A stretch of DNA of 64,000 bases, taken from positions 62,001 through 126,000 of the forward strand of contig NMRA01000177.1 in NCBI GenBank assembly GCA_002633005.1. Direction: 5' to 3'. The number at the start of each line of letters is the position of its first letter. Positions within the stretch are counted from its first letter, which is position 1. The notes under the pieces are model-generated. The model saw only the letters and a list, made by a program, of their open reading frames with translations. It did not search any database and was not told where the DNA came from. Both the position numbers and the translations under genes were made by a program. Below, one piece after another: positions 32,014 through 63,121 of the stretch. The DNA is from Phoronis australis. Taxonomy: Eukaryota; Animalia; Phoronida.

Positions 32014-32062
32014 GTAAGTTATTGATTGCATGAAAACGTTGCATAACTTCTAACATTCGTTG

Positions 32063-32720: not shown

Positions 32721-33152
32721 CTGTGATGTTCTTTTAGCCCTAGGCGGGTTCTTTTGCAGCGGCAAGCTTGTCGGCTGGGCACACGGAATTCTCCTATATA
32801 CAGTAGATCTCGCTCGGTTGCAGTTTACAATAGGCTCATCTTGAATTGAACTCTCCTCTATCGCGGAGGATGAAAAATAGATTGCAGGACTAACCTACTT
32901 TCCAAAATGTCGGGCACTAATGAGTTGATTCACATTCGAAGAATAAGTCATTGCGCCTTCAGCACTGACGTTTGCACTGTTTCCTAATTCCTTGCTGTCA
33001 GCATCGCAAATCAAAGTGCAAGCTTGCATTTTAATGGAATACCTTATAATTAGGATGTCAGGTATTGAATAGTACACTTCCCTGTAAAGTAGCCGATCAA
33101 GTATTGTGCTATTTCAAGCCTTGAATTTAAGATTAATAGAGTTGACTTTCAG

Positions 33153-33249
33153 GTGTTTCAACGGCGACAAGATGGTTCGGAAGACTTTTATCTCGACTGG
33201 AACGATTATAAAAACGGGTTTGGCAACTTGGTAACGGAATTTTGGTTGG
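33153..33249 (+). CDS. PAN-FBG protein, exon 3
   Basis: Acceptor gactttcAG; VFQRRQDGSEDFYLDWNDYKNGFGNLVTEFWL(G); donor GTAAGT. Confidence 0.95.
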
Positions 33250-33570
33250 GTAAGTTGGCGTATAATTGTCTTACTTCATTCATGATCTCAATTCAAGGGA
33301 ATGAGGCGTGCTTTGAATTTACCCTAAAGTTAAATAAGATTTTCTCGCTAAGTTGTGCATTTAACTGAATATCCACACAACCGTTTTCTAGAGTTAAACT
33401 CAGTAAAACTATAAATTTTCTGTAAGTGCAGTTCCTGTAGAATTTGACTTTATATTGTAGGACGTGTCCCCTCAATAATTTACAGGCCTCGAGGGCCCCA
33501 AACTGTGGAGGGGATCAGTTGGCAACCAATGGCACTCTGTTTCTTTATTACTTATATCGTTTCTTCTTAA

Positions 33571-35206: not shown

Positions 35207-35348
35207 TTAAAGACCCTCATAGATGGGAGTCCCAATATTGGAATCCGTTGCCTGCCCTTTTTTGTGAAAATGGAAAGCCTCTACGTTAAGGAAGGTCACC
35301 TCTTGTTAAAGGGACCCAACACATACGGGATTCTTTCAGGGATGGTGC

Positions 35349-35495
35349 AGTGGCGGATTTAGAGGGGGGTTATGGTCCCCCTAAAACTCTCCCAGATTCC
35401 ATTTGGTAGTTTGGAGGTGCGAATATCTGACTGGCAAAATCCTGGCTAATACACTGCCCTGGCCCCCCTAAATAAAAATCCTGGATTCGCCCTTG
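35349..35495. mobile_element. Short GC-rich MITE (GGCGGATTTAG termini)
   Basis: agtggcggatttagagggggg ... cccccctaaataaaaatcctggattcgccc; related termini near 28886-28937, 46303-46350 and 47154-47169. Confidence 0.55.
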
Positions 35496-35804
35496 GGGTG
35501 GCAGGCAAATTGTGAATTACACAAATACAATATTCCCGACTGTTTTATAAAAATCAAAATATCGATACATTCTCACACCGAATTACAAGAAAAGTTGTCA
35601 TTTGGAGATGGCTATTAGGAAAGTATTAATGACGAAGAGGGCGAAACTCGATCAATCAAACTGTCGAGGTACGATTTTTGTTACCTGTGTACAGTGTACA
35701 TGTCAATCGAATCAAGATTCTCAAAGTACGGTCTACTTTAACTGCTATTTTAGACAGGTAAATGTAACTTATATACCGCAACAAACTCGCATTAGATTGA
35801 ACCT

Positions 35805-35958
35805 GCCTCCCGTTCAGTAACGCAAGGACCTCGCTAAAAAGCAAGACTTCGCGAGATTACGTGAGATATTGCCGTGCATTTTAAATAAGAACACGTGACT
35901 TTGACTAGGTTTTAGCCAGGTCCTAGCGTAGGTCCTAGCGTCTACTGAACGCACGCCT
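35805..35958 (-). mobile_element. Short MITE-like repeat, copy 2 (family of 2890-3030)
   Basis: gcctcccgttcagtaacgcaaggacctcgctaaaaagcaagac...ctactgaacgcacgc is the reverse complement of copy 1. Confidence 0.8.
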
Positions 35959-36205
35959 GAATTCACGAATAAATGTTGGTCCCTAAACTTACCGTGGGCT
36001 GCCCCGCCTCCCATGCTCTCCAGTTGGCCGCCAATTATCTTACCGTGAATTACATGTTTGAAATAAGCGTAACAATAACCTGCAGTTAACCCAAAGTGTT
36101 CACAGTGTGCCTTTGATGTTTATATTGAGGTGTTACGTACTTTAACGGCCAAACATGTCATGATTATTTTTGGCAACCTTCATTGGTTTCTGATTTTCAT
36201 GTTGA

Positions 36206-36370
36206 TATATTTACAAAAATTGATTGATTTGTAGACGATTTTTTGACAATTATAAGCTAATCTTATAAGAAATTGGTGATGTTTCAGTGAACTTTGAGGC
36301 AGGTTGAAATTCTAGAAATCTTTATTATCTGACCCCAAAGTGCACTGGATGATTTCTGCCAATCTGAAAA
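36206..36370 (+). repeat. Interspersed repeat fragment, homolog of 45842-46010
   Basis: Shared aagctaatctt.taa.aa..tg.tgatgtttcagtga core with colinear flanks. Confidence 0.65.
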
Positions 36371-37985
36371 ACCTTCTAAGAAATTTTATGTGTTGTAGAA
36401 CTTGGACGTTCGTTAAGGAGCTTCAGGTAGTTCTATAGCTGATGCCTCTTCGGATATGTAGATTAGGTTCTCGTGTTTTGAAAAGGTGTTTTTAAACAGC
36501 CCTTAACCGTGAATCCATCACCTTGAAACCTAGCCCTTTTAAAGCGATTCTTTCAAAGCATAACCCTATTAAAGATAGATTTCCGAAACTGTACCCAAAA
36601 AACTTAATATTTACCTTAGGCTTTATTTTAGCTCTCGGAAATAGACGAAACTATAACCGAAGTTTCTTACTGAATTAGTGTTTCTCTTCTCATGGTTTCA
36701 AAGGAGTCCGCACCAGGAGTTTCTTTTTATACTTTATACCCCTAAAGTGATTTTGGCAGCACGTCTTTTATTGTCCTAATAACATAAAATACCTAAATGC
36801 GTAATGGGCATAATGCGTTCAGGTCCAGAATGTTTGAAGTCCTTCTTAAACGAGAACCTTTCTGCGCGTTGAAATTTGTTTAATAAACTCGTAGTTTTGC
36901 TTAATCAACGCGCTGAACTAGTTAAATTCAACGAGCTGAGTTAGTTCTTTTAAGAACTAATTGAAATCGGTTATCATTCTGTTCTTATTTAACGCGCACT
37001 TTTGCTTGATCGACGCTTGGTTTTCCTTATTCAAAGTGCTGTATTAGTTATTCGTTCAACACACAGAAAGGCACTCGTTTAACAACCCTTTAGCGCTTCA
37101 TAATATGAATTCATTAGAATGTGACCATTTTTCGTAAAATTTATTGAATCATGGGTACCCAAATTTATGGTGGCTGCCCCCTCCCCCCGGAGCAAATCCT
37201 CAAACAGCAAAGGCGTGACGCCTGTGGCGAGGGCAGTACAGATCTGATGACGACCAGGGGTAGACGTGGTGGCAATAGCCGGGAATCTGAAATCTGGAAC
37301 CGCGGGGTGAAGAAAGTTCGGCGAAGTCTTATTAGTTTGTGCTTATCCTCCCCATAAGGTTGTTGGGGTCTGCAAAAGCGACCAAAGGAGGTGGGCCGAT
37401 GTGAAACTGTCATGGGTATGGGGGATTCTTGATGTCGGCAGAGGTGCACGATGCGCCAAAACAACCTTTTCTTTAAATCTCACACGAAACTTTAAACTGT
37501 TTTCAGAAAATTAAAGCCGCTATCAACCACGTGTTTCATGAAAGTGACGTCAGACTTAGTAAAGAAATTTGGTCTTAGGCTCCAACTTCGCAATTGCTGA
37601 AAATAAGTTTAGCCAAGTAATTGACCTCCTATAACCAGGATTTTGAGTGACGGCTTAACTGACCAATCAGAACACAGCATTTTCGACACACCTTTGTTTC
37701 CAAGCCGCCATTTTACCCGACAAACAACATGTTGTCAGGTAAAACTTATTATTTGTTTGTCGGCTTTCCGCAAGGGGCGGAGCTTGCGATATGTCAATTA
37801 TGAGTACATCACACTTCAGACATTATTTATACAAATTATCTCAGTTAGTTGCAGTTACGTGTAGATTTCCTCAGACTTTGTTTTTTGCTTGGGTGAGATT
37901 TAATTATTAATCTGTAATGGTTGTTTGGCGCGTAATACTAAGACCTGACTTAAATCTTAAGTCACGTTTCTTGAAACAGATTCCT

Positions 37986-38230
37986 GCCTCCCGTTCAGTA
38001 ACGCTAGGACCTCGCTAAAAAGCAAGACTTCGCGAGATTACATGATAAATTGCCATGTATTTTAAATGAGAACACGTGGCGTGCGTTCAGTAGACGCTAG
38101 GACCTGCGCTAGGACCTAGCTAAAATCTAGTAAGGTCACGTGTTCTCATTTAAAATATACGGCAATACCCCACGAAATCTGTCAAAATCTTGCTTTTTAG
38201 CGAGGTCCAAGCGTTACTGAACGGGAGGCT
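37986..38230. mobile_element. Fold-back arrangement of the short MITE family (partial inverted copy + full copy)
   Basis: About 94-bp arms 37986-38079 and 38137-38230 are imperfect reverse complements (gcctcccgttcagtaacgct ... agcgttactgaacgggaggc). Confidence 0.8.
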
Positions 38231-40157
38231 GGTGTTCGTTCAAAGCAAAGTCGTCATGCTCGTATCCTTTGCTTGAATCGAAATCAGCTGCAAACTTCAC
38301 GAGCCTCATCTCGGAACCAATAACGAACTGCCAGTTTTCCTAGACATTAAATCTAACATGTGTAGAGTACATGCTGAGATCGATTTTTAACTCTAAGTAG
38401 CCTAAATCAAAAGTTGGTGTTTGTAGAAGGCGCCGTTCCTTTAACGTCATTCATTGATCTGCAGCAAATGAAGGTGAAAATAATAAGTGAAATATCGAAA
38501 CCATGCTAATGTTGTGTAGGACCTTGTCGACTTTTCGATGTATTTAGCCAACTATTTAAAAATTATAGATTTTAACTCCGTAAAAGTAAATATTTTCTGA
38601 AACTATAAGCCTGAAGGAATTTGACTTTGACTGCTGTTAACTAGATCACGTGACCATGTGTTAAAATTTAGCAAAAGAGAGGTTCGCCCATAGCAAACAA
38701 ACAGTATCAATAAAATGACCAAATTTTGTTTGATATGAATGTACAAGAAAACCCCCAAACATGTAGCTACAATTTTCCAATCGATCATTTCGTTTTCGTT
38801 TGATTCAACTTTTGAGTTTATCATAAAAGTCCTGCTTTTATAGCCTATCATTCAAACAGTGGACAAGAACAACCCCTTAAGTGTTTTCGAGAACAGTGCA
38901 TAAAGTGTTGTGTTACAATTTTTATATGAATATAATCGGCCGATTTTCAGATATCATGTTTCAAAGTCTATCAAATTTGGTCATTTTACTAGGGTCTTGC
39001 ATAGCCTTAAAACACTGGATTTGAAAATGGCGCATTGCGGAATCTGGCTTGAGTTTCCGGTTCCTTCAGCAACGATTCGAAGTCGGGTGAGCGTAATGTT
39101 TTTAAACCACGAAGCCCTTCGGTTCAGAATTCAACGCATTGACAGCTAAAGATCGTGGTTTTGAAGAGGCATAAAACGCGAAAACTCGTAAAAAATATCT
39201 TATAAACAGATGGTGGCATATCTACCTCTTGGGGATGCTAACGTTAGACATTCACTTTAAATAATTACAAGAATTTCTAGGAAAAAATAGTCAGCTTCAC
39301 TGTTGTTGAAACACTGACGAAAAAAAATTCTTGCATGGTATGCGCGCATGGATGAATAAGGACATCGTGTTCCATACATTTCCCACCGCGAAGAAATATT
39401 CGCGGCAACTGAAGCTACTGACTGCGGCTGATAAAGTAGGAGATTTTCGATCCCAATCGGTGTTAAAAAGCTAAAATAAATTAGTGAAGTTAAGCTAATC
39501 AAACAATGGGAGGGTCTGATAGTTGAATTTATTACTCTGCTGTTAAATTAATAAACCACTTTGTAGTAATTGAATTTTTGTCTACCAAATCTGAGTCGTG
39601 ATCAGTCGGAAGTCACTTTCATGGTCTCATTATTCTAGAGAGTGCCAAGATAAAACGCCCTCTATTATCCTCTTAAACCATAACGTAGTCGAGCACAAAC
39701 TCGTAATAGACATTTATTTGTTGCGCAGAATAGAAAATGACTAAAATAATTTCGAGTTGGTTTTTGAATATGAAGGTTTAACCCCGGTCCCTGGAGACGG
39801 TTTTGGTACTGTTTTTGGCAATGTACAGCATGTGCACATATTGAAGTAAGACTCTCAGTAATCTCTTTCTTTATTCAACTAAAACTTACTTTAAACAGCG
39901 CCAGTAAAATGAGAGTAAATGCGTGAACTCAAAATACTTGTGTTTATTTTTGCAAATGGCGAAACCGGAAGGACTAACAAAAATAGTCAAACGAATAACT
40001 CGCGTAAAGTAATAAACGGGAAACCAATAGTGGCGTAATGTCTCTTTAAGTCCTTTGAAGTAACACTTATCAGTCCTAAGAAAAAATTAGCACAATACAT
40101 GTAATACACTTGAACTAGGATCGGTACCATCAAAGACCAGGGAGGATACCATAACAC

Positions 40158-40357
40158 TCAATCAACCACAAAATCCTGAAGGTAGGTTGGAGGACGTTTG
40201 GTCCTGGAAGAGCGTCGCAAAGGAACGTCTCCCGTCACGTCAAGTGTACCGCTGCTAGTATGACCCGCATCATTGGTAGGAACAACATCATTCGAGGTGT
40301 GGGAAGGTTGACTCAGGTTTACTCCAGGAAGAACATCAGACACACTAGAAGGTGGTA
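40158..40357 (-). mobile_element. LTR retrotransposon (Ty3/gypsy-like) Pol C-terminal remnant, cut by the gap
   Basis: Low-complexity linker ending PLRRSSRTKRPPTYLQDFVVD-stop, a characteristic tail of gypsy-type polyproteins. No catalytic domain or LTR is visible. Confidence 0.6.
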
Positions 40358-40542
40358 NNNNNNNNNNNNNNNNNNNNNNNNNNNNNNNNNNNNNNNNNNN
40401 NNNNNNNNNNNNNNNNNNNNNNNNNNNNNNNNNNNNNNNNNNNNNNNNNNNNNNNNNNNNNNNNNNNNNNNNNNNNNNNNNNNNNNNNNNNNNNNNNNNN
40501 NNNNNNNNNNNNNNNNNNNNNNNNNNNNNNNNNNNNNNNNNN
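40358..40542. other. Assembly gap (N run)
   Basis: Continuous run of n bases. Confidence 1.
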
Positions 40543-40768
40543 ACACTAAAATTTCTTATTCCGACAATATGAAAAACGCTACTTGATTGCACGCTAACAC
40601 AGGACAGTGACTTTGCCCCCGCCAAATACGTCACGAGACTAAGCAGCGCTCCAAGCCGGTAATTTTTTTAGCTTCGTTAGAGAATATAAGTTTAATTTTT
40701 GGTGTTGAATTATTTGTGAAATTAATCAACAATTCATAGAAAACTATCCAGAATTTATTCAGAATAAA

Positions 40769-41994
40769 TTACAGTTCCCTTTCAATATCTGATAAGTTGA
40801 CAAATCTATCTCTGGAATCTCGGATTGTGAGAACTTGCCTTGCTTTTGACTCCATAAAGTCTTCAACCAGAGAACTTAGTGGAAGTGATACTGCAGCTGT
40901 CCTACTATATAATCCCACTGACGTGAAGCTCGCTGGTACTCCCAACCATTTCCTGATATTCTGGTTTGCCTCCCGCTCCATAGACTCGACTGCTGAGATC
41001 GGGATGCTGTAAACCGATAGCGGCCACGAGATCTTGGTCAGTAAACCGAATTGATAACACCAGAGCTTGAACTTCCCCGGCAAAGTGCACCCGTTGATCT
41101 TCTTCAAACTCTCCCTGAACAGGGCCACTGTGTCCCTTGCGTTTGTGATGTCGCTTAAACTGCTGCCGTTCACCTTGCCTAGATATTTCACCGACCTCTC
41201 ACCCAAGGATGGAATCTCCTCACCGTTCATACGGAAGGCTCGGTGCTGACTCATTCTCCCTTTCATCAAGACCAACCTTCTGGACTTCTGCACCTTAAAC
41301 CTCATCCTACCCCAAACAATTAGTTCTTCTAATTTCTTCAACACCCAACCTGCTCCTACTGCTGTTGATGTAGTAACTGTCGTCGACAAATGCACGACAC
41401 GGGGGAATGCGTCTGCCTTGTAGAAGAGGCTCCCTGCACTCTTTGCTGGATCGTCAAATAATGAGGTTCAATGCTAGCCCAAATAAGCTGACTGAAATGG
41501 TGCACCCGGTCAATATCCCTTTCTTCAAAGGCTTGAACTCTGTTGTGAACTCTTTCGTTGAAAGTCACATCTGTATACTGTTGAAGTAGTCGTTGATGAC
41601 CTTCCTGTACTCCTTCCGGAAAATGATAAGTCGCCAAGGCCTTCCTAATTAGTGAATGTGGCATGGAACCATAAGCATTCTCTAAATCTAACCACACAAC
41701 TGCCAAGTCCGACTTGTCTGCCTTTGCCTTACTGATCAGCTCCGTTAGAACAGCATTATGCTCCAGGCAACCCGACTGCTCTGGTACACCACTTTTCTGC
41801 ACTGTGGGGTGGATACAACCATTAATTCCCCAGGGCGTACTTGACAATTCTTGATGCAATCACTGCGAAGAAAATTTTGCACTCCAAATCAAGCAGGGAA
41901 ATCGCCCTTTAGTCTTTTATAGCCTCAGCATCTTTGATCTTTGGTATATAACAGCCTCCAGCCTTGCCCCAGTGATCAGGAAGTTTCTTCTGAA
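40769..41994 (-). mobile_element. Decayed non-LTR retrotransposon reverse transcriptase (HERO-like, RLE-type clade)
   Basis: Minus-strand pieces: WGKAGGCYIPK...*RAISLLDLECKIFF; QKSGVPEQSGCLEH; DLAVVWLDLENAYGSMPH; AFVDD near 41381-41395; KYLG; LPGKFKLWCYQFGLL..ISWPL...RKWLGVP...LPLSSLVEDF. Several frameshifts and stops. The clade call is from recalled motifs. Confidence 0.9.
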
Positions 41995-42452
41995 TCTTGC
42001 TAACATATCCATTACACAAAACGGAACGAGTTGCCATGGCATTTCGTCGGCCAGTGGCTTGTTGCATGAAACAGATATATTACGGAGTCAAGTATATTTC
42101 CATATATATGCGGACTTTGTTTACTCACTACATACGCGCACCCAAGGCTCGAGCGACCCCCCCCCCCCCCNTTTATTACAGTTATATCATTCAGGGCACT
42201 TATGGATTTAATATTAACGCAAACGGTTCCTTTTCTTAACACACCGGTAGCAAGCAGTTGAGTTACTATAATTCTTTGTACTAAAGCTTGAAATAATCAC
42301 TCTCGCTTCTGCGGCCATATTTGTTGGTCTTAGTTTTGAAACATTTCATTTGTGTAATGTAATACCTCAAAATGCAACATTATTTTTAAACTTGGATATG
42401 ACAAGAGGAATGCACTTTGTTTGACTTAATTATTTGATATATATTTACATAG

Positions 42453-42617
42453 GTAATGACAACATCTACCGACTGACCCACCAGGATAGGTACCAGTTAC
42501 GTGTGGATTTAGAAGACCACGAAGGCAACAAGGCGTACGCATCGTATCACAGTTTCTCTATCGCATCCGAGTCGTTCAATTACACACTGACAGTGGGCGG
42601 GTATTCTGGAGGTGCAG
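42453..42617 (+). CDS. PAN-FBG protein, exon 4
   Basis: Acceptor tttacatAG; (G)NDNIYRLTHQDRYQLRVDLEDHEGNKAYASYHSFSIASESFNYTLTVGGYSGGA(G); donor GTAGAC; 165 nt, phase 1-1. Confidence 0.95.
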
Positions 42618-45600
42618 GTAGACATAAACTGTCGCTTATGTGGTTACGAAACTTTACACCCCTAAGGCCAACAAGCTAAAGCAACATAATCGGTTCCGGT
42701 CAACGTTTTTTTTTTGCTAATTGATGTGGCGTTTTTATGCTGTTCAATTTTGTGAAAACTACTTTTGGTGTCACTATAGGCGGTGCGTTTTTTCTATTCT
42801 CTGACTAGCGTCAGTGATACAACAACGCGATTGCCCGTGGTGGTCTCGACCGAGGGCTGGGGGATGACCCTGATGCTTGTCTCACACAGTAATCGTAACC
42901 TGGCTATATATATATTTAATGAAGACCTATGAGGAAGATTTTTATGCCGTGGGACGCAGGTTACACAATGGGTTGGGTTACCGACCACAACCAAATAATG
43001 CATCTTTGGCTTAAAAGTCAGACACGGTCTTAATTTTGTCTCTAGCATTGACAACTTAAAAGATGCAAAATCACTGCGATAAAGGATTCTCTGTCGACCT
43101 TTCACTAAGTTCTATTTGATCTACGTTAAATCTGTTGGAAGAGGAGTTTAGAAATTGACGCTTCCTAACAAAATCACAAAGGAACAACATGTTTTTCTGT
43201 GTCATTGTCAAAGATAACTACGTCAACTAATTCTACCGCTCTCAAAAAATGCTCAAAATGCCTTTTTCGGCCCTAAAACTAAGCTGCGTTTTATAGACGC
43301 AGTAAACTCGCAAAAATGCTAGATCACGCTACTTTTTGCGAGATACGGCCATGCATTACCAGTGAAGCACTTGATCTCAGTGGATTACCTCGCCATTTCC
43401 TTGCTTCTACACAACGCATGTGGTCGTCAAATGAACTTACCTTGAGTTAAGCGGTTTCACATAACGCTCTGTCCACACCAATTGGATCCTGAACAAACAT
43501 ATCAGTATGTAAATCGTAGCAGATGTCAACAAAAAGGCAGTGCTATTTAAATACAGGTACATGCCAGCACAAATGAGAAATCGGTAAAGTAAACAGTAGC
43601 TAATCGAATGTAATGTAATAGAGTGTAAACTATTTATTTATTAAACCTTGTAAGAGCTCTTTTTCTTTTGATGAAAATATCAGATTTTCCAGAGGTTCAT
43701 TTACTCTTGCAGTACAACGTCATCTCGTTCTTAACCCTTTGTTTGAGTCGAAACGGTTACAATTATTTGCTTGGAATAGCAGGCAGAATACTTATTTGTC
43801 CTGCAGGTACATGACATTGGCTTTGCTTTAAAATTGTCGGATTTATTATCGAAATCCTGTCGGGAAACATTTCGTTCACGGATACCTCTCAAGCTTATTA
43901 TAATTTCTATCGTCAGATTGTCAGGTGCACTGCAGTAAACCTTCGCTGGCATTGAAAGGTCATTGCAGTTAAAACTGCCAAGAAAACTGTGAAAAAAGCA
44001 AAAGATCTACAAATAACGTGAGAGATCCCAGTAGCACGAAAACGAGGCCACAAAAGTGCATGGCGGATGTTGCAGTATTGTGGGTAAATAATGAGAGATT
44101 CAAGTGTCGCTGTCTAACCCTTCTGAAACTAAGCTGCCGTGACAAGCAACTTAATTCATCTGGTTTGAAACAATGACGACCTATGTGTACTTCTCGTGGT
44201 CAGAGATCATTTCTGAGTTGAGAAGGACAATTAACATATCGACTTCGATTTTGTAAAAATAAGTGGACTAAATCAAATTTAAATTTGTCAAATAGAAAAT
44301 TAGAGTGTAGTTTACAATTTGTGCAAACTTTTGTAGTTTACTTAGTTGCATGCGACATCTAAATCATCAACCTGATATTATTTTATTTCAAAAGAATCAA
44401 ATGTATTCTGATATTCGCCCATTGCCCAACATTTTCGCGTTTATTCGTCCTTTTACAACAGTGATTTTAATTCAGACGCAGGGCCGTAAGAAGCGGTGGG
44501 GGGATGGCGGGGGGGGGNGGGGGTGCTCGCTCCCCCCAAAAATTTTTTGTCAGGCCTCGGGGTTAAACCGTGGCAATCAACATAGGCGTGGGGCCGGGGA
44601 CAGTCGAGAAAAGAAAGAATGCGAAATACGAAGAAGAGAGAAAATTCAAGAGAACATTTAACAACTCTGTATCAGTGCATGGTTTACCTTTTGAGGACCC
44701 TGGCCAGGACGTTGTTGCAGGGGTTTCCACTTTTACTGGATTTTTAAATTCAGTAAGTCAATTTTGCGAAAGCAAAACTATATTTTTCTAAGAGATAACG
44801 GAGACAAGTTTCGCTTTATGTTTTTCCTCGAAGTTGTCTGTCATTTGAGAACAATTGGTGACCTGCGCATTTCCTGATTTTTGAAAATATAGATATTTTC
44901 ATATTTAGGGATCCCGCTCTTGAAGGAAGCCATTGATGACATTCAAGTGGCCACCCCTTTTGTGTTTTTATTGACAAATTCTTAAGGGGCTGCTCACGGA
45001 AAGAGGGTCCTCTGTTGGAATCGATCGCCTCTATTTTCCTGTTTTTGTGAAATCGTGCAACCGGCTTCCATGTTGAAGAAGGTCATTTCCTACACTGTCT
45101 TGTGACCACACGACTTTGGAATGAACTGTCATTCTTTTCCAAGCTTAATATAATGATGTTTAGCCTTTCATGACCAAGGTTTCCCATTTCAGACGGGATC
45201 TTCCCTCGGTGGAGTAGTTCGGGGGAAATGTCCCTTTGTCCCTCTGTACATGTAAATCTTACACTTCCAAGTGGTCACGAGGGAAGTTGAAATTCCAAAT
45301 TCATCAAAAAGCACAAAACATTCGTGCACAGCACAGCAGTATCAAGACATTCGACCCAAACAATCAAAAATGTGAAAAAATACAATACAACTGACCACCA
45401 TCGAAAGGGTGGAATTTTGAAGAAAAAAGAACTATTTAATATGGTTAGTTTTAAAATAATGTTATTGTTTCCCATAAAATAGTATCTCTTTTGAAGATGG
45501 TTACTATGAGTTGTTTGTAAGGAATTCCCACCTGTGGAAAACACTGATGTCTGAGGTACTATTTGTGATGACCGTGTACATGTCGAAACTCGCTGGGGGT

Positions 45601-46468
45601 ACTCAAAGAACTCTCTCAATCATAAAGAAATGAGTTTTTTTTGTAAGTGGAGATCAATTTTACCTCGTGAACCGTTATAGGTACCTCTGAAATGAGCAAA
45701 AATACTTTAATACAAATGTCACATGTCCCATATTTCCACGGTTACCCGTGCTAAAAATCTGCGAGCATGCCTGCGGAAATTGCTTAATATAACATTCCGT
45801 TTTGATATAAACAGATTCGCTAATTTCTGATTTACTTGTTTATGTATTTACGAAAATCGATAGATTCATAGATGATATTTGAAAATTACAAGCTAATCTT
45901 GTAAAAATTGATGATGTTTCAGTGACTTTAGTTGTAGCCTGAAGTTGGAAAAACTCTACAATCCGATCCCCAAATAGTAAAATACACTTAGACGATTTTG
46001 CCTATCTAAAATAACTCTCAAAGATATTAATGAAATTCGGAATCACAAACCGTAGATCGAAAAAAGTTTTAAAAGTCTTTAAAAAATAAAATTATTAACT
46101 CATTACTAGGAAAAGTTGTCTTTGCACTTCCTTTGTGTTTTTAGTTTCCATTAGTATTGCGCCATGGATTTTTGTTCTTCAAAACTCAATTATTGGAGAC
46201 AAATAAAACAACAACAATAATATATATTTTAGATTGCATTGGGAATTTCAGGGTCACAGCTCTACTAATGAATATTTCACAGAAGGAACCAGATCATGCA
46301 TAGGCGGATTTAGGGGGGGGCCCAGGGGGCCCGGCCCCCCCCCCCCCCTTGGCTGCTGCAAAAAATAAAACAGTAAGAGCGTAGGGAAATGGTGAGTTTA
46401 TTAATTAACCCCGGTAATTAAAATTATACGGATGAAAAAAAGATTTAAATGTGTGCAGTTTTAGTGTT

Positions 46469-46732
46469 NCCGGCAGTGGCGCTGCGCACTACGACTCCGT
46501 TTCCGTCGTCTGCTCCACTGTGCAATGAAGAAAATTTACTTCAATTTTTAAAGAAAATGGAATCTGAGTGACGATGAAAAAACAGAAGCTGCTGGTAAGA
46601 TGTGGATTTTAATCCAAGCCTTAGTGAATCACTAAGAAACTCTGTTTGTCAAACCTTATCTTAAGACGATTTCCAAAGCAATACCGTCATTATTGCCAAC
46701 ATGAAAAATGGATTTGGTCTATTGGGCATTTG
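46469..46732 (-). repeat. Interspersed repeat fragment, inverted homolog of 27372-27641
   Basis: Reverse-complement match to 27372-27641; begins immediately after a single n at 46468. Confidence 0.85.
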
Positions 46733-46884
46733 AAGACTATTTCAAATACGACAAATTTGTTAAGAACTGATGGCACAAAATATAAAACGTGTAAAAAGCA
46801 TTACAAAAAGAAGTAGGTTTAGCACGCAAACGCTGTGGACCACTGATAAAAAAGTAGGTCTTTTAATATGAAATCAGTGGTGAA

Positions 46885-46950
46885 GTCGTGGTGGTGCAGT
46901 GGTAACGCACGCGCGCTTTATCCGCCAGATCGTGAGTTCGAGTCTTTGGT
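46885..46950 (+). mobile_element. tRNA-derived (SINE-head-like) Pol III promoter remnant
   Basis: A-box-like tggtgcagtgg and B-box gagttcgagtc at tRNA-like spacing; no complete cloverleaf. Confidence 0.45.
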
Positions 46951-48334
46951 ACTTGCAGTTTTTCCTGTTTGACACGTTCTCCGTTTTTTGCCTTTTTTTC
47001 TTGGATAATATATCAGGAATCAACGAAAATGCTTGATTTTTAGAGGTAAAAACAGAAAAATTTCCCCCCATTCGGTGCTATGCGCATCTACAATCGTTCA
47101 GTTTGCGCAAATGCTTGCAGCCGGACAAAATGTTGGCTCCCCCCCTGTGATATCCTAGATCCGCCATTGCAGATGGGTACATAATACCAAATGGGTATTG
47201 GCCGATTGCCTACCAAGTGGGTCGAGCAAAACGGCAAATTCAATTACAAGTACCAAATGGGTACAACTGCCAAATGGGCAAATATTATATAATAAAGTAC
47301 CAAGTGGGTACATCAAACAGCCAACTGGGCTATAACAACCTGCAAAGCAGGTTCCGGACAAGCTGAGTGAGCAGACCAGCCGGAGTGATAAAAAGAGATA
47401 TTGTAAGGAACGTGGTGTTGTGGCTCAGTATGTGCCACATGGGCAGGGTTGTTCATGGATGAACAATCCTGTCCACCGCCACTGTTTGCTTGCCTTGATT
47501 CCCGTGCACGTCATGAGTGACGGACGTACCCACGTTAAAAATAAGGTGGAGCCATGCAGTAGGCCCGCGCAGAATCTCAGTGATTCAAGGGAGCTGAACT
47601 CTAAGCGTTGAAATGTGTACGTTTTTGGGACACACTCGATTTCAACACAAACCAGAAATTGTAGTGCCTGTCGTGTTTCAGTGATGGAATTTAAAACAGC
47701 CCCAAAGTCACTATGTACCAGGGACTTTGGGACCTCACCTTTTTCAAAAAAACTTTCAAAAAATGGCCATAATAAAATTAAGTTTTCTCGAAACTGGATC
47801 ACAATAAAAACGAACCTTGACCTTAGAGACAGCGCAGACGGATAGGTATACGAGCTAAGCTGTCTGTCTCAAGTGAATCACAGTTGAGCTGACCAGCAAC
47901 TAGCTTTAGTTCATCGGGAATTCCGTATTTTGACACTGTTAGGTCTCCACTGTACAGTTACTTGAGGCAGTTCTTCACTACCCGTCAGTGCACCGGCCCT
48001 AGGCCCATTCTTAGGCCTACTCTCCGTGCTAGTTCACGGTTACTCAACTCTTGATGGCCGCCATCCCCGGGATTGCCCCCCACCTAGGGCGGACGTGAGA
48101 AATTCGGTACAAATGTGGTGGCATCGGGAGCACAGGGTGCTGGGAGCTTGTGTCCCCCCCCCCTACCCCCATAATTTTTGGCTTCCTACGGGTCTGAGTC
48201 GTATTGTTTTTCAACTATTTCAGCTAACGGGCATCATATGAAAGGACACGCGAGCCTGTCTGCAACTCGATGGCTTTATGCTTAGGCAGAGAAATGGTGG
48301 CTTAGCAATGAATACATGAAGAATCCTATACGAG

Positions 48335-48448
48335 TCTCAGGTTTATGACATGGGCAAAACTTCTTGTAAATTTCGTCAAAATCCCTAGGCTTGTCCAGGG
48401 ATTTTGACAAAATTTCCAAGAGGTTTTACCCATGCCATAAACCTGAGA
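48335..48448. mobile_element. 114-bp hairpin MITE inserted in another repeat
   Basis: tctcaggtttatg...aaaatccctagg / ccagggattttg...cataaacctgaga forms a nearly full-length palindrome, flanked by cgag on both sides. The homologous repeat near 63540 has the empty site (tatacgagtc). Confidence 0.85.
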
Positions 48449-48770
48449 CGAGTGTAAGATTTGTTTTCTCACATGAAGTGTAAAAACGATCTTTTCGCCG
48501 AAAAACTCGACGTGTCTAAAACTTTCAACCACATGACGCCACTTTTGTAAAAACACGTTTGCGCAATGTAATTAAACTCAGTTACTTTTTGTTAGTAGTT
48601 TTATTTTAAACGTAACAATTGTAAATTGCATTCAGCATTCGTAACAGTATGTAAGTTAGAATCTAATAAATGGTCTTTGAAGTTGTAATACTAAAATTTA
48701 ACAAATTTTTATACAGTCAGCAGGTCTTCCTCGTGCGTGAGTACGGAATTGACACAGCATAGCTAGAAAG
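48449..48770 (+). repeat. Interspersed repeat, homolog of 63535-63850
   Basis: Colinear: ttctcacatgaa, gtgtctaaaac, cagttactttttgtta, gtaaattgcatt, aagttagaatctaataaat, acagtcag. Confidence 0.85.
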
Positions 48771-50177
48771 TCTCACCGAAGTTCTTGAGTTGGGGTTCGT
48801 CTCCGTTTGAATGAACGCGGATATGGAAGTTGTTCGCATGTCCGTCCGACTGGGAGTACGTGCACAACGGATTTGTGTGTCATAACCTCGTCACATTCAC
48901 GGAATTGTTTGTATGCCGCGCGTTTGGTTGTTTTAGTGTTTTGCAGACGATAATAAGCAATGCGTATGGATTTCTACTTTGCACTACTTTGTGATTCACC
49001 CATGTGATATCGAAAAAGTTACGTATTCGGAGTTATTAACCAGTCGTGTCGTAACACATTCCAGGTCATGCGAGAAAAATACGGTCACAGTAACAAATGT
49101 TACAGAAAATTATACATTAACCCACTTTATCTACATCAACTATCACAAATGGATATAGAAAATAGTCTGGTCAAACCGGCAAAGTTGAAGTGCCAAGGCA
49201 TTATTCCTGCAGATTAATGTAACCACGCAATCGTAATGTCGGTGTGTACAGGTTAATACTTCACGGGAAATTCGAGAGTAATATTTATGGCTAAATTCCA
49301 TTATGGTATTTTCAATGTAGAGACTTCCAACCCTGTGTACGGGTTTGTTTACTGACTCAAATGCATCTAGGTCTTTATAAACATAATGCATAGTTGCATA
49401 CACTCATTCACCCATACATGTACACGTAAACATGCACACGCACATAAATTTTATACAATCATAAACTTACACTCATACTCGTATACACATTAACTAGTAT
49501 TAATCAGTTTTTTTAACAACTTACATAAAAAATTCAACACGGGCCTGGTTGGAAATAGGGATAATTAAAGGTGAACAATACGAGAGATGTGTGCTATTTG
49601 GTGACGTGGATTAAACATTGAAAATATTGTACAGTAATGATAATTTAGGATTTATAAAAAATCTGCTCTTTCGTTAGCATTTGGGAGGGGGGGGGTGAAA
49701 TGTGTAGTGATAAAGTGGTAAAGTTTGTTTGTCCATATAGACTTTGCGGAGATATAGTTTGGAAATTGTGCGGGAATTTAAGAGTGCCAAGGTGCAGATA
49801 GGATTTTATGCGATTTAGAGTGATCTCAACACGAAGTGAAATGTTTGAGTACAATGGGTGACGGAGTTTTTGTGAGAAAGTTGTCGACATGACTTTTGAG
49901 ATCGTGTTAGGGTGCATATAGGTGGAGAAGTTTTCAAATTGTGTGGCAGCTTTTCAAAATGTAAGTTCAGTGGGAAAGAGACAGAGGAACTGTGAGGAAT
50001 GAGATTGTCTATAGAATCTTCGTGTTAGGATTTCCCGACATGTTATTGATATCATGGAAAAGCTTGGATATATGGGTGATAATGTGATGTTTATTACTTG
50101 AAAAAGGAGCAGGAGCAATTGGCAGGGTTATTTACATTCATTCTCATGAAAATATTTGGAATTGGCCTAAGAAATTA

Positions 50178-50223
50178 TATAATAATAATAACTACAATAA
50201 TAATAATTATTATTATAATAATG

Positions 50224-50272
<49 letters not shown>
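50178..50272. repeat. (ATA)n microsatellite
   Basis: Long, slightly interrupted ataataata tract; source of the spurious poly-Ile ORF. Confidence 0.95.
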
Positions 50273-50273
<1 letters not shown>

Positions 50274-52665
50274 TCTCATATATTTTGAGGACATGCAATG
50301 CTCACTTTTTGTATGAGAACAGTGATTTAATAATTGTATTTTTGTTGCACACGTAGTATAGACGCTGACACTGACACGGAAGTTATTTTGTCATTGGGCT
50401 TTTGATTTCAGTTTCTGTGAAAGAGGAAAAAATCTATTAGCAGTCTGGAGATGGCCTCAACATGCCACAGACAGATTCCAGAAGATGCTGCCCATGATTT
50501 GTTAATCTCCCAGCCCTGCACACTTATTTGACTACAGGTGTCCTAACGCATTTGCTCTAAGCCATTTTGTATGATCTGATACCAGTTTGCCCGAGCGGAT
50601 GAGGACCACTTGAATGTTCCCTTTGCTATAATTGAAAATATTAATTGATTTGCATATTTGCTTGCTGAACTATAATTAGAAAATTGATTTCAGTGTGGTA
50701 GAGGCAAGTTTTCGTTTTTTTCTCAGCGTCGAATATTTTCCACAATACCCATTCACTTGAGAATGTAGATTCAGTCAGTCATAAAAATGGTGTCGAGTAA
50801 CCTAGTAAAGACGGCTGACCCTCGTAATAAAGGCACAGATTGGTCTTCTGACGAAATAATAGTCTTACTTTTAATTCCATGTCGGGTAACACCTGTATCA
50901 GATTAGTAATGGTAACACATTTATAATCTCATTGTCCACATGTACTGCGGTGGTGTTACTCGTATTGAATGCACAGCACTGATGCGACTCCTATCAGGCT
51001 ACCCGATTCACGTGTCTTTCCATATAAGGAAGTGAATAAAATCGGGAAACCGACGAGGTCTTCGGCCTGCCCGCCTGAAGTTGGATTGGAAGAAGAGTAT
51101 ATGGAAATATTGAATGGTACTGGGCGAGCAAACTATTCGTGCTGTGGTTTATTGGTTTTCTTCTTGGTGTCATGAAGGATTGTTGAAATTTCTTTTACTC
51201 CACTCATTTGAGGGGAATCTCAGAATTTTATGGTCCCTGTGAGTAAAGAGATATTGCTCTCATCAATAGAAAAAGTGCAAAACAAGGATATTTGATATTC
51301 TGTAGCGTTCCTGAGGGAAACCTCTATCCTCTGCACTTGGAATTTGCGCATTACACAGATTGGGAAGGTGACATGAGAAAGTGGTTATAAGGAATGGCAA
51401 TGCACAAGACAAAAAATAAACCGGTTCTCTTTCCTGGTTACTATATTGTCACGAGGTTTTGATTGACAAATATATCCTATAGGAGCGAAACAAAAAACGT
51501 GACCTTTTAACAAAATGTCCCGGCCAGGAAGCGAGCTACGCGTGCGCTCTACTTGGTGCGACACCTAGCGACTTCCACAAAAACTAATCAACTAATAAAC
51601 GAATGTAACAGTGGTTTTGATTATGTTTCCTTTTTCCAACTGTCTCGTGTGAATTTTAGTTGTTTGTTGCAACTGGATGAATAGTATCATATTCAAAATA
51701 CAGATGAACTCATGACTTAACATTTATTGTTATCTTGAGATTTGTCACGTGCATAATTCCCTGGTGCAGATACCGCTTAATTAAGAAAAATAATTTTTAT
51801 AATATGCTTCTGGTATAAGGAGACTTATTACTAATATCCACACGTAAAGTGTTGTCTGCTAGAATGTCACTCGCTGGATAATGAGCAGTTTTAAATTGGT
51901 TTTTAGGGTTCTTGCGAAACCCATGATAAAAAGAAAACTTAGTCTTAAAATGTATCCGTTTGTTTAATATGAAGATGATTGTTTGTGTGATTCTAGACTA
52001 CGGGCGTAGTCTTCGGCAAACGCCGGGACTCGGGATTGAGTCTTCAAAAGTATTCATAATTGTTGTGCGAACGGTACGAGTTGTTCTCAGTGGGACGGAA
52101 ATTGATTACGTCACGTACCTCGCAACTTCTCCAAACTAGAGACAAACAATATGGCGGCGTCCTATTCACATGAAGTAACACATATTTAAAAAGTGAAGTT
52201 CCTGCCACTGAATCTGCGAGCCACACAGAATAGGACATTAACCACGTGTTTTTTTAAAAGAGAATTCAACGGGTAGTTCTTGGTTACAACTTTGATCAAA
52301 TGTAATTGGCTACTGACAAGTGGCAAGAGATAAAACCAAGATGGCGGAATCCTTTAGACTATTCAAGTACGGTGACATCACATTTACCGTTCCAATTGAA
52401 AAAAAATGAAGTTAAAAAGCGGCGGTAGTATTGTTTCACTTGAGTCTTGTTTTACCCTTTAATTTGTTGTGATTGCTGAACTACGGCCAAAGAGCCCATT
52501 AAAATTGCCAACGAAAAGGTACAAAAAAGGCCTAGAGGTCCTCTAAACTGGTTCATTGAAGTGATGCCGTGTGGGTCAGTTCACCCATACCCATGTTTCG
52601 CTAAAATGATTCCTGTCTATATATATATTTTTGGCTAAGTTAATGCGTCATTATTTGTGTTTCAG

Positions 52666-52922
52666 GGGATTCCTTGACATACCAAAATGGTCAATCATTC
52701 AGCACAAAGGACAGAGATAACGACCCTGATTCCAGGAATTGTGCCGTGCTTTATAAAGGTGCGTGGTGGTACTCCGACTGCCACGACTCGAATTTGAATG
52801 GTCAATACGGTAACACCAACTACGCCGAGGGTGTGAACTGGAATCGTTTCAAAGGCCTATTCTACTCATTGAAGAGAACCAGCATGAAAATAAGACCAGT
52901 GGGGTTCACGCCGGCAATATAA
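52666..52922 (+). CDS. PAN-FBG protein, terminal exon 5 (ficolin/FIBCD1/tachylectin-5-like ligand-binding region)
   Basis: Acceptor tgtgtttcAG; (G)[19 protein letters not shown]...[24 protein letters not shown]...YAEGVNW...[12 protein letters not shown]...-TAA. The five exons total 960 nt = 319 aa + stop; tandem ATTAAA at 53092-53102. Confidence 0.96.
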
Positions 52923-57784: not shown

Positions 57785-57791
57785 TATAAAA
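57785..57791 (+). promoter_or_regulatory. Putative TATA box of the PAN-TLDc gene
   Basis: TATAAAA about 80 nt upstream of ATG 57868, followed 20-30 nt later by initiator-like tcagcagtcatagt. Confidence 0.5.
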
Positions 57792-57867
57792 CGGTTCGCG
57801 GCAAATCAGCAGTCATAGTGCAGCTGCAATATTCAACATTTTGTCTTGTGAGACTGAATTAGCACCG

Positions 57868-58222
57868 ATGACTATGTATCTCGATCAAATGTCTCTGTTT
57901 AATGTAATGATTGTTTTTATGTTTGAAGGATTGCGTTTGGTCCACATTGAGGGTCTGGAAAACGTGGTGTATTTCGGTAACGGCGCCAAGAACACACGCA
58001 TGAACTGCTTAAACGTCACTGTTATCCCCCACCCGATCCATAGCTCGTTACTATGCGCTGCCGAATGTAATCCCGATGAACTGTGCGATGCCTTTGCCTT
58101 TAACGATTGGGAGAAACTCTGTCACAAATACTGTATTGACAGCTATTTGCCAGAGACATTGGTGACTGCAAATGGCTGGACGTACTACAAAAAGGAATCT
58201 AAGAACCCAGGTAGTTGCACGG
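57868..58222 (+). CDS. Signal peptide + PAN/apple domain exon, paralog of PAN-FBG exon 1; probable first coding exon of a PAN-TLDc gene
   Basis: MTMYLDQMSLFNVMIVFMFEGLRLVHIEG...FGNGAKNTRMNC...CAAECNPDELCDAFAFNDWEKLCHKYC...GWTYYKK; 32/75 ungapped identities (hand count) to the 29308 exon; consensus donor G|GTGAGT, phase 1. The start Met is ambiguous among several ATGs. Confidence 0.85.
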
Positions 58223-60341
58223 GTGAGTATTTTATCACAGTAATTGGCGTCGACGACAAAAGGCGTTAACAATAAACGCCTTTGTGGTACATATTTGTTC
58301 TCATATGTTGTGCAAATTTGGCTCCATGTGCTTGCATTTAAAAAATGCATTTTTCAAAGAAATACATTGCTCAGGCGTTTCACTAAAATCTTAAAAATTG
58401 CATTTTTTGCGAAATTCGTTCCTGCCTCCAGCGTGCAGTCGGTTTCGCGCAAGCCGAAAATCCAATCAAGTTCCTGACTGCATTGACTTTTGAGCAGCCG
58501 CATTTACTTCGAATTAATTCCAGGATAGTATTCACGGACAGTGATCTTATCAATGTACGTTTTGCTGTTGCTCATATGTTATCAAAATGCAGGAATGGTA
58601 AAAGGCAATTAGTAAACTAATGTGACCAAACTGTCCTCTAGACTAAGTTACTCGGTCCCATTTCTGTACCAGAGCCAACCATGAGACAGAACAGACAGTG
58701 GTCTTTTAGTCTCTAGCAGGTACTAATACCTGCTGCCTTTTTGTAACGACATTACAAATCGTCATTTCTGTCAGACAATTCATGAAGTCAATGCCGGTGA
58801 GTAGGAATACTCGCGAAATACTCGACTAATTTATGAAGTTGGATTAACTCCGCCAGCAGATCGTTTTGCGGCGACTGCGGGGGTTGCAGGTTCGCGCTAG
58901 GGCTGATCTCAGAAAATCACATTTCTTGAGCACAATATCCTTGAAGTATTTGCTTGGTCCTTTCAAAATTTTGTAAACACTTTAAAAAACTTTTTATTTT
59001 AGACATGTGCGGTCATAAAATCAAATCGGTTTCATCCGGTTCCCTACTGAGATTAGAAATGCTGATTTCGCTTGAGAAGACATGCCTCCTGTTGTTATAG
59101 TTTCAGGGTATTTCAGTTCAAACAAAGGAATAAAAACGCTATGAAGTAATTTTGGGGGAAGAAATTTCATTTTTGATACCAGAATAAGGTGATAGTAGAT
59201 TTAATACGCAAAGAAACTGGGTCATTATTGCGGTCAATGAAGGTTTAATTAAAGATCATTTCACAACGGAGTGACAAGTTCATGAACTTTTTCCATTCTT
59301 GACGTCATACGTACAATTGTGTCCATCTACTAATTCTTCATTTTTAACACGTGCAAATTATTCATCAAACATGAAAAAATGCTTTAGGAATAAAATTTGA
59401 TAATTGATGTTGTAACTCCAATATCATTATAAATATAATTGAGTGACATCTTTTCATAATTATCAAACCATGAATGAATACACCTTTGCTTTATTAGAAC
59501 AGCAAATTAAAATTTTATCCAATAACCATAAACGTATGAAACAGAACTTGGGAATTGGCATTTCCAAAAGAATAAAGTCTGTAAAATTTGATTTTTAAGT
59601 TAATTGCAATCAACCATCAATTAGCTCACGTGGTCGCGTCTTGAAAAAAATCAGCAAAAACATAGTTAACAATGACATCATTAACGTGACCAAATTTTAT
59701 TTGTAATAAATTTTCGAGATTGAACCTCAAACAGTATTATAGTTTTTCTTTACTCTCATCTTGTTTTCGTTTTACGCAGCATTTACTTTCTTGTTCTTTC
59801 CACTTTTGAAAACCTCTCTTGCAAAAGTGGATCGTTTTGAAGCCAACACTTGATAGTGTTTCGAAGAACAGTGTACAAAGCACAATATTTGAACGTTTCA
59901 TGTGAATCCGATAAGCCATTTCTAAGACATTTGAATTTTCTGCAGGCAGGCCCATTTTTATATACGCTTAGTGTGCCTACATCAGAAAAAAAATCCGCAG
60001 ATACGCTAATGGCGTTTAGCTGGACTAATAAGCGTGCTTAAATCCTGAAATTTTCCCCAGGTTACATAGGAAATGGACACCTAAACTGCAATTAAATTGA
60101 TGTTTAACATGAACTCCTACATGGAGAATAATGTCTATTGACTTTACACTAAACAGTGAATATATCATTGCCATTATTTGTATACACCAAGGATTGGTCT
60201 CTAAACTGGTATTTTCTAAAGAAACGCCTCAGGCTTGTCCGCAGGTATGATGTTTCACTCAACCTTGGGAAACAATAGTGTTTCTTGCCTCGACTTAAAG
60301 TCATACCTTGATATGAAGTGAGTAATCAGCATTTGCCACCA

Positions 60342-60666
60342 AAGTCCATTCCTCTGCAGATGGCTCTGGTCACGCGGTTACTGCTGCTTCAGTGGCCTTG
60401 TTTGTTGCTGATGCAGAAGTGATGTACACTGCGATGACCCTTTAAATACAAGACAATCATACAAATGCCAGTGTGAAAAGTAAATGTTTTGGAAGCATTC
60501 AGCCACTTAAGTCCATTCCTCTGCAGATGGCTTAGTTCTCTAGTCATGCGGCCAATGCTGCTTCTGTCGTCTGGTTTGGTGTGCACTGCGATTATCCTTT
60601 AAAAACAAGACAATCATACAAAATGCCAGTGTGCATGAGAAGTAAATGTTTTTGGAAGCATTCAGC
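60342..60666. repeat. Tandem duplication, about 165-bp unit, 2 copies
   Basis: aagtccattcctctgcagatggct...acaagacaatcatacaaa...ggaagcattcagc occurs twice head-to-tail. Confidence 0.85.
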
Positions 60667-61697
60667 GCTCAGAAAAATAAGGTTTTTGCCGATTTTGTAT
60701 ATATTTTGGCTCAAACTTTTCACACATAGAAATGTGCATTTTCAAGATCATCACTGATTACTCCATAGCATTTTACTGGACAGCATTTTCGGGAATGTGA
60801 CATAGGCTAAGCTGTAATGTAGATAATCGGAGACAAGACAGTCTCATATTAATAAATTCAAATTTCCATTTAAATTAAGTCGCTTCGAATGGCTATCCAA
60901 TTATTTATACTCCAGTAATTAGTGACCTATTCTTTATTTCGTATCTATAGCTAAGGCATTGTTTTAGTTGAACAATTTTACTCGTAAAGCTGCATTTTGC
61001 CCTGTTTAGCCGGCTAAAAAACGAAAATCGAATTAGGCCTTTTACTTTCATCAAATTGGCCTCACAATTTCTCGGAAATTCATGAATGTATTCTCTTCTG
61101 AAGATTGCATTTCGCACTACTTAATCACTCCAGAGCTGAGAAACTAGAATCTGAGGACTGACTAATAAAAATGTCGCGTGCTTCAGAAACGTAAATGCGG
61201 CACTGAGTGTAACATTAACTAGTCTTTTATTTACATCTTTGAATTGAAGGGACAGTGGCTAGCGGTGGTAAACTAGATCAACTTCATGGCAACAGAAATT
61301 TAATGATTTCTGTCCTTCCAAAACATGCCAAACTGATTAATTTCCGGTTAGTGACAATGAAAAACGCATTATGGAAGAAAAAAACTGGTTTATTTCCTGC
61401 AATCGACTCAAAAGTATTGTGGAAGACAATTCTAAGCCTTCTTCAGAGGTTTATGTTCGTTATTTCCCAATTGATATTTGATTTTTGTGCGAGACAGACT
61501 GGAGAAACGGTAAACCCTGATATACACTTATTGTTAAAGCTCGTATTAACCATTTTTACCAAAATAACCAAGTTTAAATAATTAGTCCAATAACAGTCAA
61601 ATGTCTGCATGATGTACAAAACCAACTCGCAAGCAGCGCCTTAATTGTTCTGATTTCCATGAACTGCTTTTCCATGATCACCTTGACTATATTTCAG

Positions 61698-62219
61698 ACA
61701 TAAAAGACTCAAAGCTGTTAACACCAGACGACATGACGTTGTTGTCGCAGTGGTTGCCAGATAAAGAATTCCGGCTCCTTTACAGGGCAATGGTAGACGG
61801 CATGTCGGCGTCGGCGTTCCATGATAAATGTGACGGTAAAGGTGCCACCATCACTATTGGGAAAGAGTTCAGTAGCGGCACCACATTCGGTGGTTATGCC
61901 TCTGTCTCTTGGACAAGCGCCGGTTTTTACAAGCCCGACAGCAACGCATTCGTGTTTCGGCTGTGTGGACAAGGATGTACATCAGCCAAGTACAACCAGT
62001 ACAGGAAACAACAACTGGCTCTGCTTCATCATTCCTTCTTTGGTCCAAGATTTAGCTGGGACCTTGAGTTCTTCTATGGTAGTAGCCACTCGTACAACAG
62101 CTCCAGCATGTACTTCCTGTCTAACGGCTGCTGCGGTATCCATAAAACCACCTACAATGGCATACTTGGCTGTGGATGGAATGTCAAATGGACCGACGTT
62201 GAGGTGTGGAGGGTTGTTG
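61698..62219 (+). CDS. TLDc-domain exon (symmetrical phase 1-1, 174 codons)
   Basis: Acceptor atatttcAG; (D)IKDSKLLTPDDMTLLSQWLPDKEFRLLYRAMVDGMSASAFHDKCDGKGATIT...FGGYASVSW...DSNAFVFRL...GPRF...DVEVWRVV, with TLDc motifs LLYR...DG....FH..CD, FGGY, AF.F, GP.F and EVW; donor G|GTAAGA. Confidence 0.9.
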
Positions 62220-63121
62220 GTAAGACTTCATTCTCTCTCCTCTTTGGAATTGTTATTTTTATGTACTTCTATCACGCAATGTGGATTTATAAATGTGATT
62301 TTTTACCAAACTGCATTTTGAAAAACAGGTTAATATGTAATATTTCACTTGTCAAAACTGCAGGTTCAGTAAGACAGAGGTAGGTTCTTTGGATAATCAT
62401 ATGACAAATGAAATTTTTTCATTTTGTTTACCTACTTTTGTGATTTATGATATTTTTATTATTGCACGTTTGATGTTTTTGTGACTATTATCCATAAAAT
62501 TGTGGAAAGTTATTAAAGCGGTATTAAACCCATCCATGTTTTCTGTCAAAAAAGTTTTGATTTAAAACGCTTGGTATTACAAAATTGGCATCAAATTATT
62601 CCTCATTCAGTTTAAAAGCGATGTTTGGGCTCGAGAAAATTTACGATCCTACAAACACGCACCTAACCCGAGGATTACAACTGGTATCCTGAAATCAATT
62701 CGTTTCAAAGACATGCTCTACATACCGACCCTTTGCAACTCACACTTTGTCTGAATAATCTCAACATGTCAGCGCAAAAATACACTCTGGACTTAAATTT
62801 CAACTGAGTGACGCTGCGTCCTCTTCGAGTGTTTTCACTATACGAAGTGCCATGGTGGTGATGACGTAAACGGTGGGGAATGAAACAGAGCGTGCGGACC
62901 TAAGCCAGTTCTAGAGGGTTGGACTCTTAATTCGCTGAGAGGTGCATTCAACTTGTTCGTTGACAGATTCCTTAACACCACGTTTGAACCAATATTCGCC
63001 ACGATCCAAGATGGTCCTTTCTCAAAAGTTATAGACGACTCACATTCCTATATCCCAGAACGAGGCTAGTACTGTTAAGTCAACAGGAAGGTGTCTGTTT
63101 ACAGTACTGACCTATTTACAG

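Follow-up and report, generated by a model that had tools for sequence, protein, structure and literature searches.

Whether a TLDc domain can serve as a module of an exported protein, behind a PAN/apple domain, is the question raised by a stretch of contig NMRA01000177.1 of Phoronis australis (positions 62,001 to 126,000 of the forward strand). In this stretch of 64,000 nucleotides (nt; hereafter the window), about 40% GC and of animal-type DNA, a preliminary description had placed on the forward strand an exon for a signal peptide and a PAN domain (exon A), a donor after 58222 and a phase-1 TLDc exon starting at 61698 (exon B), and had proposed that the two are spliced into a secreted fusion protein. 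Frame, splice-site and Pfam checks found every one of these elements. We find that PAN joined to TLDc is a real new architecture within an expressed family. The fuller reading, in which this gene belongs to a multi-copy family and encodes a protein that is likely secreted or surface-anchored, its PAN module carrying the TLDc domain as a likely binding head, is one on which our confidence is evenly balanced.

The join itself was observed in RNA. Three raw-read runs (X1, X2, and X3), about a fifth of each, were examined together with a contig set (X4), and junction reads were counted at 80% likeness. The intron between the two exons (58223..61697, forward strand, GT-AG, phase 1, 3475 nt, with dispersed repeats) was skipped by 16 reads of related copies in two of the three runs, all of them sense and in-frame and falling into three linker forms. 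The X1 junction was covered by three reads with three different starts and a shorter side of 66 nt, in a register of exactly 58222|61698 and reading S-C-T-D, and in X3 four reads carried an equally long linker and nine a shorter one, both in-frame by hand translation. At 90% likeness the X3 forms were still seen in four and seven reads, the X1 joint was not listed, and no junction reads were listed for X2 at all. The depth over exon B was nearly all sense (204 versus 2 in X1). PAN-TLDc splicing thus occurs in a family with three or more copies or divergent alleles besides this one, and from the intact frames and canonical sites we infer the same splice at this exact locus.

The coding part of exon A (57868..58222, forward strand), overlain by sense reads of X3 and X1, opens a frame of 118 codons at ATG 57868 and ends at CGG|gtgagt after 58222 in phase 1, the sole GTRAG donor within its open frame. 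Its probable signal peptide covers about residues 1-29, with a hydrophobic core at residues 10-19 and a peak 9-residue mean of 2.5, as judged by hydropathy only; sense RNA reads overlie this part as well. The PAN/apple domain that follows has six cysteines in PAN spacing (47, 63, 67, 73, 85, and 89) and a sequon, NVT, at 49, while a seventh cysteine, Cys117, lies in the short linker before the donor. The match to Pfam PAN_1 (PF00024), 19 bits with an E of 1.3e-3, stays below the cut-off of 21.4, and a single-sequence structure model reached a predicted local distance difference test score (pLDDT) of 33. We assign the domain to PAN despite the sub-threshold Pfam score because of the cysteine spacing, the match to PAN clusters in the ESM Atlas (score 0.95, with 28 of 30 hits PAN_1) and the 43% identity (E 1e-19) to the PAN exon of the upstream neighbour, which itself clears the PAN_1 cut-off with 31.3 bits. 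A TATA-like box, TATAAAA (57785..57791, forward strand), 30 nt 5' of an initiator-like TCA at about 57815, is a candidate promoter, and the X3 sense depth begins just 5' of 57855 (0.15 in the bin 57700-57854, a weak signal of about one read). A few opposite-strand reads (depth 1-2) cover 57855-58319 in X1 and X2, either an antisense transcript or noise.

Exon B (61698..62219, forward strand, 522 nt) holds an entire TLDc domain as a symmetric phase 1-1 exon. Its acceptor, tatatttcag directly before 61698, opens a phase-1 frame of 201 codons; no other listed pyrimidine-rich acceptor of the 3475-nt intron has one of more than 60 codons. Against Pfam TLD (PF07534) residues 3-172 score 68.7 bits at a cut-off of 24.5 (E 7e-19). 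The AlphaFold2 model has a pLDDT of 85, with loops at residues 121-150 that are of low confidence and variable between copies, and superposes on the TLDc domain of NCOA7 (7obp) with a Z score of 19.6 and a root-mean-square deviation (rmsd) of 2.0 across 153 residues; NCOA7 and Oxr2 TLDc domains reach a Z of 19-20, and the best unrelated fold among 48,161 chains a Z of 4.1. Six residues were examined in Ncoa7 (G815, S817, G845, G896, L926, and E938), and their counterparts in exon B are G34, S36, G64, G115, L156, and E168, a mapping made by spacing (2, 30, 51, and 12) and profile alignment rather than by superposed coordinates, and G34 and G64 are invariant among 41 aligned relatives, whatever their location. 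According to PMC8608904, four of the six, E938 included, are buried and required for folding in Ncoa7, and the V-ATPase is the one defined partner of TLDc; a review finds no evidence for an enzyme activity of TLDc (PMC5614904). The conserved Glu of exon B is therefore uninformative on catalysis, since E168 matches the buried folding residue E938. In a chosen subset of the listed read differences mapped to exon B, 12 of 23 were synonymous. We do not press a claim of hypervariable loops, as the abundant related transcript differs in the 5' portion of exon B too.

The gene does not end with exon B at 62219, a point absent from the preliminary description. At its 3' end, TTG|gtaaga, a second phase-1 donor (62220..62225, forward strand) follows, and related transcripts depart from the genome exactly at 62219 (231 reads in X1, 183 reads in X2, and two contigs in X4, with loose read ends at 62219). 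Because of this donor and these departures the gene, of which exons A and B together encode 292 residues, is incomplete at 62219, and at least one further exon lies downstream. The next-exon peptides of the related transcripts were not found in the three frames of 62220-64000. Translated by hand, the first 30 nt beyond exon B in the abundant related transcript give D-G-N-A-C-T-V-F-N-P, which resembles the start of an EGF module, although the following codon is not Cys. A hydrophobic read-through 3' of 62219 was considered as a membrane anchor and rejected, the depth beyond the donor being explained by reads ending at 62219. The protein extends beyond the two exons and may be membrane-anchored.

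Exon B has the six cysteines (44, 89, 93, 144, 145, and 158), the sequon NSS at 133 and the C-terminal Glu of the preliminary description, whose proposal of disulfides gained in the secretory pathway is overstated. All 41 aligned relatives have Cys44, as do 28 of 29 domains in which the protein begins with a signal-like stretch and 220 of the 252 remaining domains. Being near-universal, also where no such stretch is present, Cys44 was not acquired on export. Cys145 aligns with the N-G-F-C cysteine of amphioxus IFI44-like proteins. The remaining four are rare among TLDc hits, occurring at the exact column in 0 to 9 of 281, and a lineage-specific look is limited to these, C89, C93, C144, and C158. 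The abundant related transcript retains C89 and C93 through a synonymous TGT>TGC (168 of 190 and 168 of 185 X1 reads) with G90 altered between them, has no change listed at C158, and by hand translation carries Tyr in place of C144. In the model C144 and C145 lie at or within segments with a pLDDT below 50. The cysteine pattern would be compatible with one or two family-specific disulfides.

The gene directly upstream of exon A lies on the same strand (29308..52922, end approximate). It looks complete, with five coding exons: one for a signal peptide and PAN domain (29308-29626, forward strand, PAN_1 E 1.8e-7, probable phase-1 donor after 29626) and four for a fibrinogen-related domain (FReD; 31892-32013, 33153-33249, about 42453-42617, and about 52666-52922, forward strand, Fibrinogen_C on all four). 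Its first coding exon and exon A are homologous, in the DNA alignment as well as in the protein, and its first FReD exon is entered in phase 1 and opens on Asp, as exon B does. The two genes therefore have a common front module and intron phase and a different following domain. On these exon models, the TLDc domain occupies the slot where the neighbour carries a fibrinogen lectin head. In animal extracellular proteins, exon shuffling usually works with whole-domain exons of phase 1-1. The arrangement of signal peptide and PAN exon, phase-1 intron and globular domain is that of the PAN-FReD proteins, among them Biomphalaria FREP1/Bg179, the Lottia FReDs and the upstream gene, PAN together with FReD being reported in these two gastropods (PMC7588048). 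The difference is that TLDc stands where those proteins have the fibrinogen domain: a fibrinogen C-terminal domain is absent from exons A and B by Pfam, and the two folds match only at background (Z about 3). Numerous FReD rows scored Z 3.0-3.6, which hinted that the two folds are related; the idea was rejected because unrelated folds score equally in a wide search.

Elsewhere in the window, protein kinase exons lie at about 4024-7638 on the forward strand (Pfam Pkinase, E 5e-13); their product resembles casein kinase 1 gamma. Broken frames resembling a non-LTR retroelement lie on the reverse strand at 40769-41859, within an intron of the FReD gene, with a weak RVT_1 match (E 0.0098). A direct repeat of 221 nt (32063-32282 / 32503-32723, 98.6% identical), the second copy of which starts with N, is probably an assembly overlap artefact, and two repeat pairs of 1.1-1.2 kb at 20737-26241 and 23101-35213 (72-76% identity, one direct and one inverted) are likely old transposon copies.

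No close homologue of exon B was found: one search gave 5 hits from 34 candidates, and in another the best single-domain hits among 1.84 billion representatives were about 35-45% identical. Exon A was found in longer proteins in none of 12 candidates, and a metagenome search gave nine distant loci, none matching PAN. A two-sequence PAN profile found nothing better than E 0.7 in 164 other retrieved proteins, and Pfam found no PAN in 76 scanned TLDc hits; as the retrieved proteins are the best-ranked of 7,488 TLDc hits, with a bias to multi-TLDc proteins, and annotated invertebrate proteomes are sparsely represented, this is weak evidence of absence. In keeping with the preliminary description, no account of a PAN+TLDc architecture was found in the full-text literature covered, which leaves most subscription papers and all supplements (such as the domain tables of genome papers) outside.

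Export of a TLDc domain, in contrast, is not unique to this family: the move into the secretory pathway that had been proposed is probable, and it has parallels. In the hits, TLDc stands beside fn3, EGF, LamG, MACPF, PKD, and collagen modules (P0034, P0010, P0054, P0064, P0067, and P0028: four TLDc with MACPF; six TLDc with EGF and LamG; TLDc with PKD; TLDc-EGF-TLDc; collagen with TLDc; fn3 arrays with TLDc and TNFR repeats), and in PMC3251606 an adhesion G-protein-coupled receptor of Salpingoeca rosetta (EGD78309.1) is reported to contain a TLD domain in its extracellular N-terminus. The choanoflagellate fn3+TLDc proteins P0028 and P0060, the bdelloid rotifer protein P0026 and this receptor resemble our gene in having TLDc behind a hydrophobic N-terminus or amid extracellular modules; they differ in that they are without PAN (0 of the 164, by the two-sequence profile) and do not group with exon B in the tree, and no description of a function was found for them. 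Extracellular TLDc itself is thus not new but a barely described, recurring theme; studies of the fold concern almost entirely intracellular proteins.

Exon B shares the fold of OXR1, NCOA7, TBC1D24/Skywalker, mEAK7/TLDC1, yeast Oxr1, and Rtc5 (7obp, 4acj, 6r82, and 7u8o; Z 14-20, rmsd 2.0-2.5), whereas its sequence is only 16-23% identical to these, of an FH-x-x-CD subtype, with extra cysteines and a sequon and a C-terminal loop region 11 residues longer; ahead of it stand a probable signal peptide and PAN, ahead of the canonical domains TBC, LysM, or EF-hand regions. Closer in sequence are the IFI44/IFI44L-like proteins (Branchiostoma P0141, P0162, and P0163; fish P0164), about 35% identical over the whole domain with common D-L-x-F-F and N-G-x-C motifs; amphioxus IFI44-like domains make up three of the top six BLAST matches, and in a FastTree of 282 domains exon B groups with them (0.908). 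In these proteins, however, TLDc is N-terminal, starting at residue 7, and is followed by an MMR_HSR1-like GTPase, while exon B comes after PAN, and no GTPase exon was found in the 1.8 kb of the window 3' of exon B. In a quick IQ-TREE of 47 of 286 domains, exon B was not grouped with the IFI44-like rows. With one tree for and one against, an IFI44-like origin is not claimed.

A plausible origin can be outlined. The first exon, with signal peptide and PAN, would have been duplicated from a gene of the PAN-FReD type, a whole-domain phase 1-1 TLDc exon would have been shuffled in behind it, and the new gene would then have multiplied. The signal peptide would direct the chain to the endoplasmic reticulum, where the PAN cysteines and some of the new TLDc cysteines probably pair and the sequons are perhaps glycosylated. 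In the exported protein the ligands of PAN would be glycans or partner proteins, and the copy-variable surface loops of TLDc (residues 121-150) would bind a target, for example a microbial surface or a host protein, like the FReD head of the sister gene; the one or more further 3' exons would determine whether the product is soluble or anchored. A bolder form of this proposal, which we hold tentatively and with less than even confidence, sees an expanded and expressed family of secreted pattern-recognition proteins in which the TLDc exon, possibly from an IFI44-like antiviral gene, was swapped for the fibrinogen head of a PAN-FReD gene; TLDc would then be basically a fold for binding ligands in general, its loops diversifying, and the family a new class of animal immune recognition proteins beside the FREPs.

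Several observations weigh against the reading of this gene as one for an exported PAN-TLDc protein with a binding head. The RNA sets are tied to the locus by species label only, and of the PAN-TLDc junctions, seen in-frame in related copies, none among the listed reads carries this copy's own linker. At 58154, 25 of 26 X3 reads differ from the window. In X1 the depth is about 204 on exon B and about 4 on exon A, and the junctions seen do not give the 5' partner of the commonest TLDc transcript. The predicted signal peptide is atypical, being without a basic n-region, with charged residues past residue 19 and a peak hydropathy of 2.5. No enrichment of cysteines was found in TLDc domains of signal-bearing proteins, with a mean of 3.7 per domain compared with 3.8 in the others, and the splicing of the upstream gene is a prediction from sequence.

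Among the other explanations the one that survives best, although we think it unlikely, is that the protein is secreted and has a structural or adhesive role, in mucus, matrix, cuticle, or a gamete coat; TLDc would serve there as a spacer or for self-association. Some long extracellular proteins do have tandem TLDc repeats amid fn3 and EGF modules, PAN makes protein-protein and carbohydrate contacts alike (PMC7588048), and the read depth of the related copies varies strongly between runs, as with tissue-restricted products. The single TLDc domain in the slot of an FReD and the expression of several divergent copies speak against such a role.

Two further explanations seem to us distinctly improbable, to a similar degree. 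According to the first, the TLDc domain keeps its cytosolic job, oxidative-stress protection or the binding of a V-ATPase-type partner, and does it extracellularly or in the lumen of the secretory pathway, as the preliminary description implied; this would agree with the conservation by spacing of all six Ncoa7 residues and with the CxxxC pair (89/93) preserved in the related transcript. The V1 part of the V-ATPase is cytosolic. TLDc proteins bind V1, as the titles of structure entries state, and because this binding side is cytosolic it should be unreachable for a secreted chain. Moreover, four of the six residues are buried folding ones (PMC8608904), G34 and G64 being invariant in 41 of 41 relatives, and TLDc is without known enzyme activity (PMC5614904). 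The second accepts the family but takes this particular copy as silent or decaying, or else as having a weak signal peptide that does not work, so that the product stays intracellular. No listed junction read is identical to this copy, only 6 to 8 X3 reads anywhere on the stretch reach 99% identity or more, the signal peptide is atypical, Cys144 is possibly odd and PAN falls below the Pfam cut-off; against this stand the open frames, the canonical splice sites, the TATA box and the full set of TLDc core residues, and the small share of each of the three runs that was examined. Finally, that there are two genes, a cytosolic IFI44-like one from ATG 61733 and a PAN exon spliced elsewhere, an alternative that the preliminary description itself had raised, is very improbable despite the amphioxus matches, the N-G-x-C motif and the FastTree grouping, given the three in-frame PAN-TLDc junction forms in RNA, which largely refute it, the position of this ATG inside the Pfam match (residues 3-172) and past its first part, and the IQ-TREE without such a grouping.

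The reading of exon A and exon B as parts of a likely exported PAN-TLDc protein matters because the molecular role of TLDc is unsettled, and a small, single-exon TLDc domain, likely exported and standing in a lectin slot, would allow the idea that TLDc is a general binding module to be tested directly. The surprise is lessened by the recurrence of exported TLDc domains in choanoflagellates and rotifers. If the proposal is true, this family would add a new type of head to the modular recognition proteins of invertebrates.

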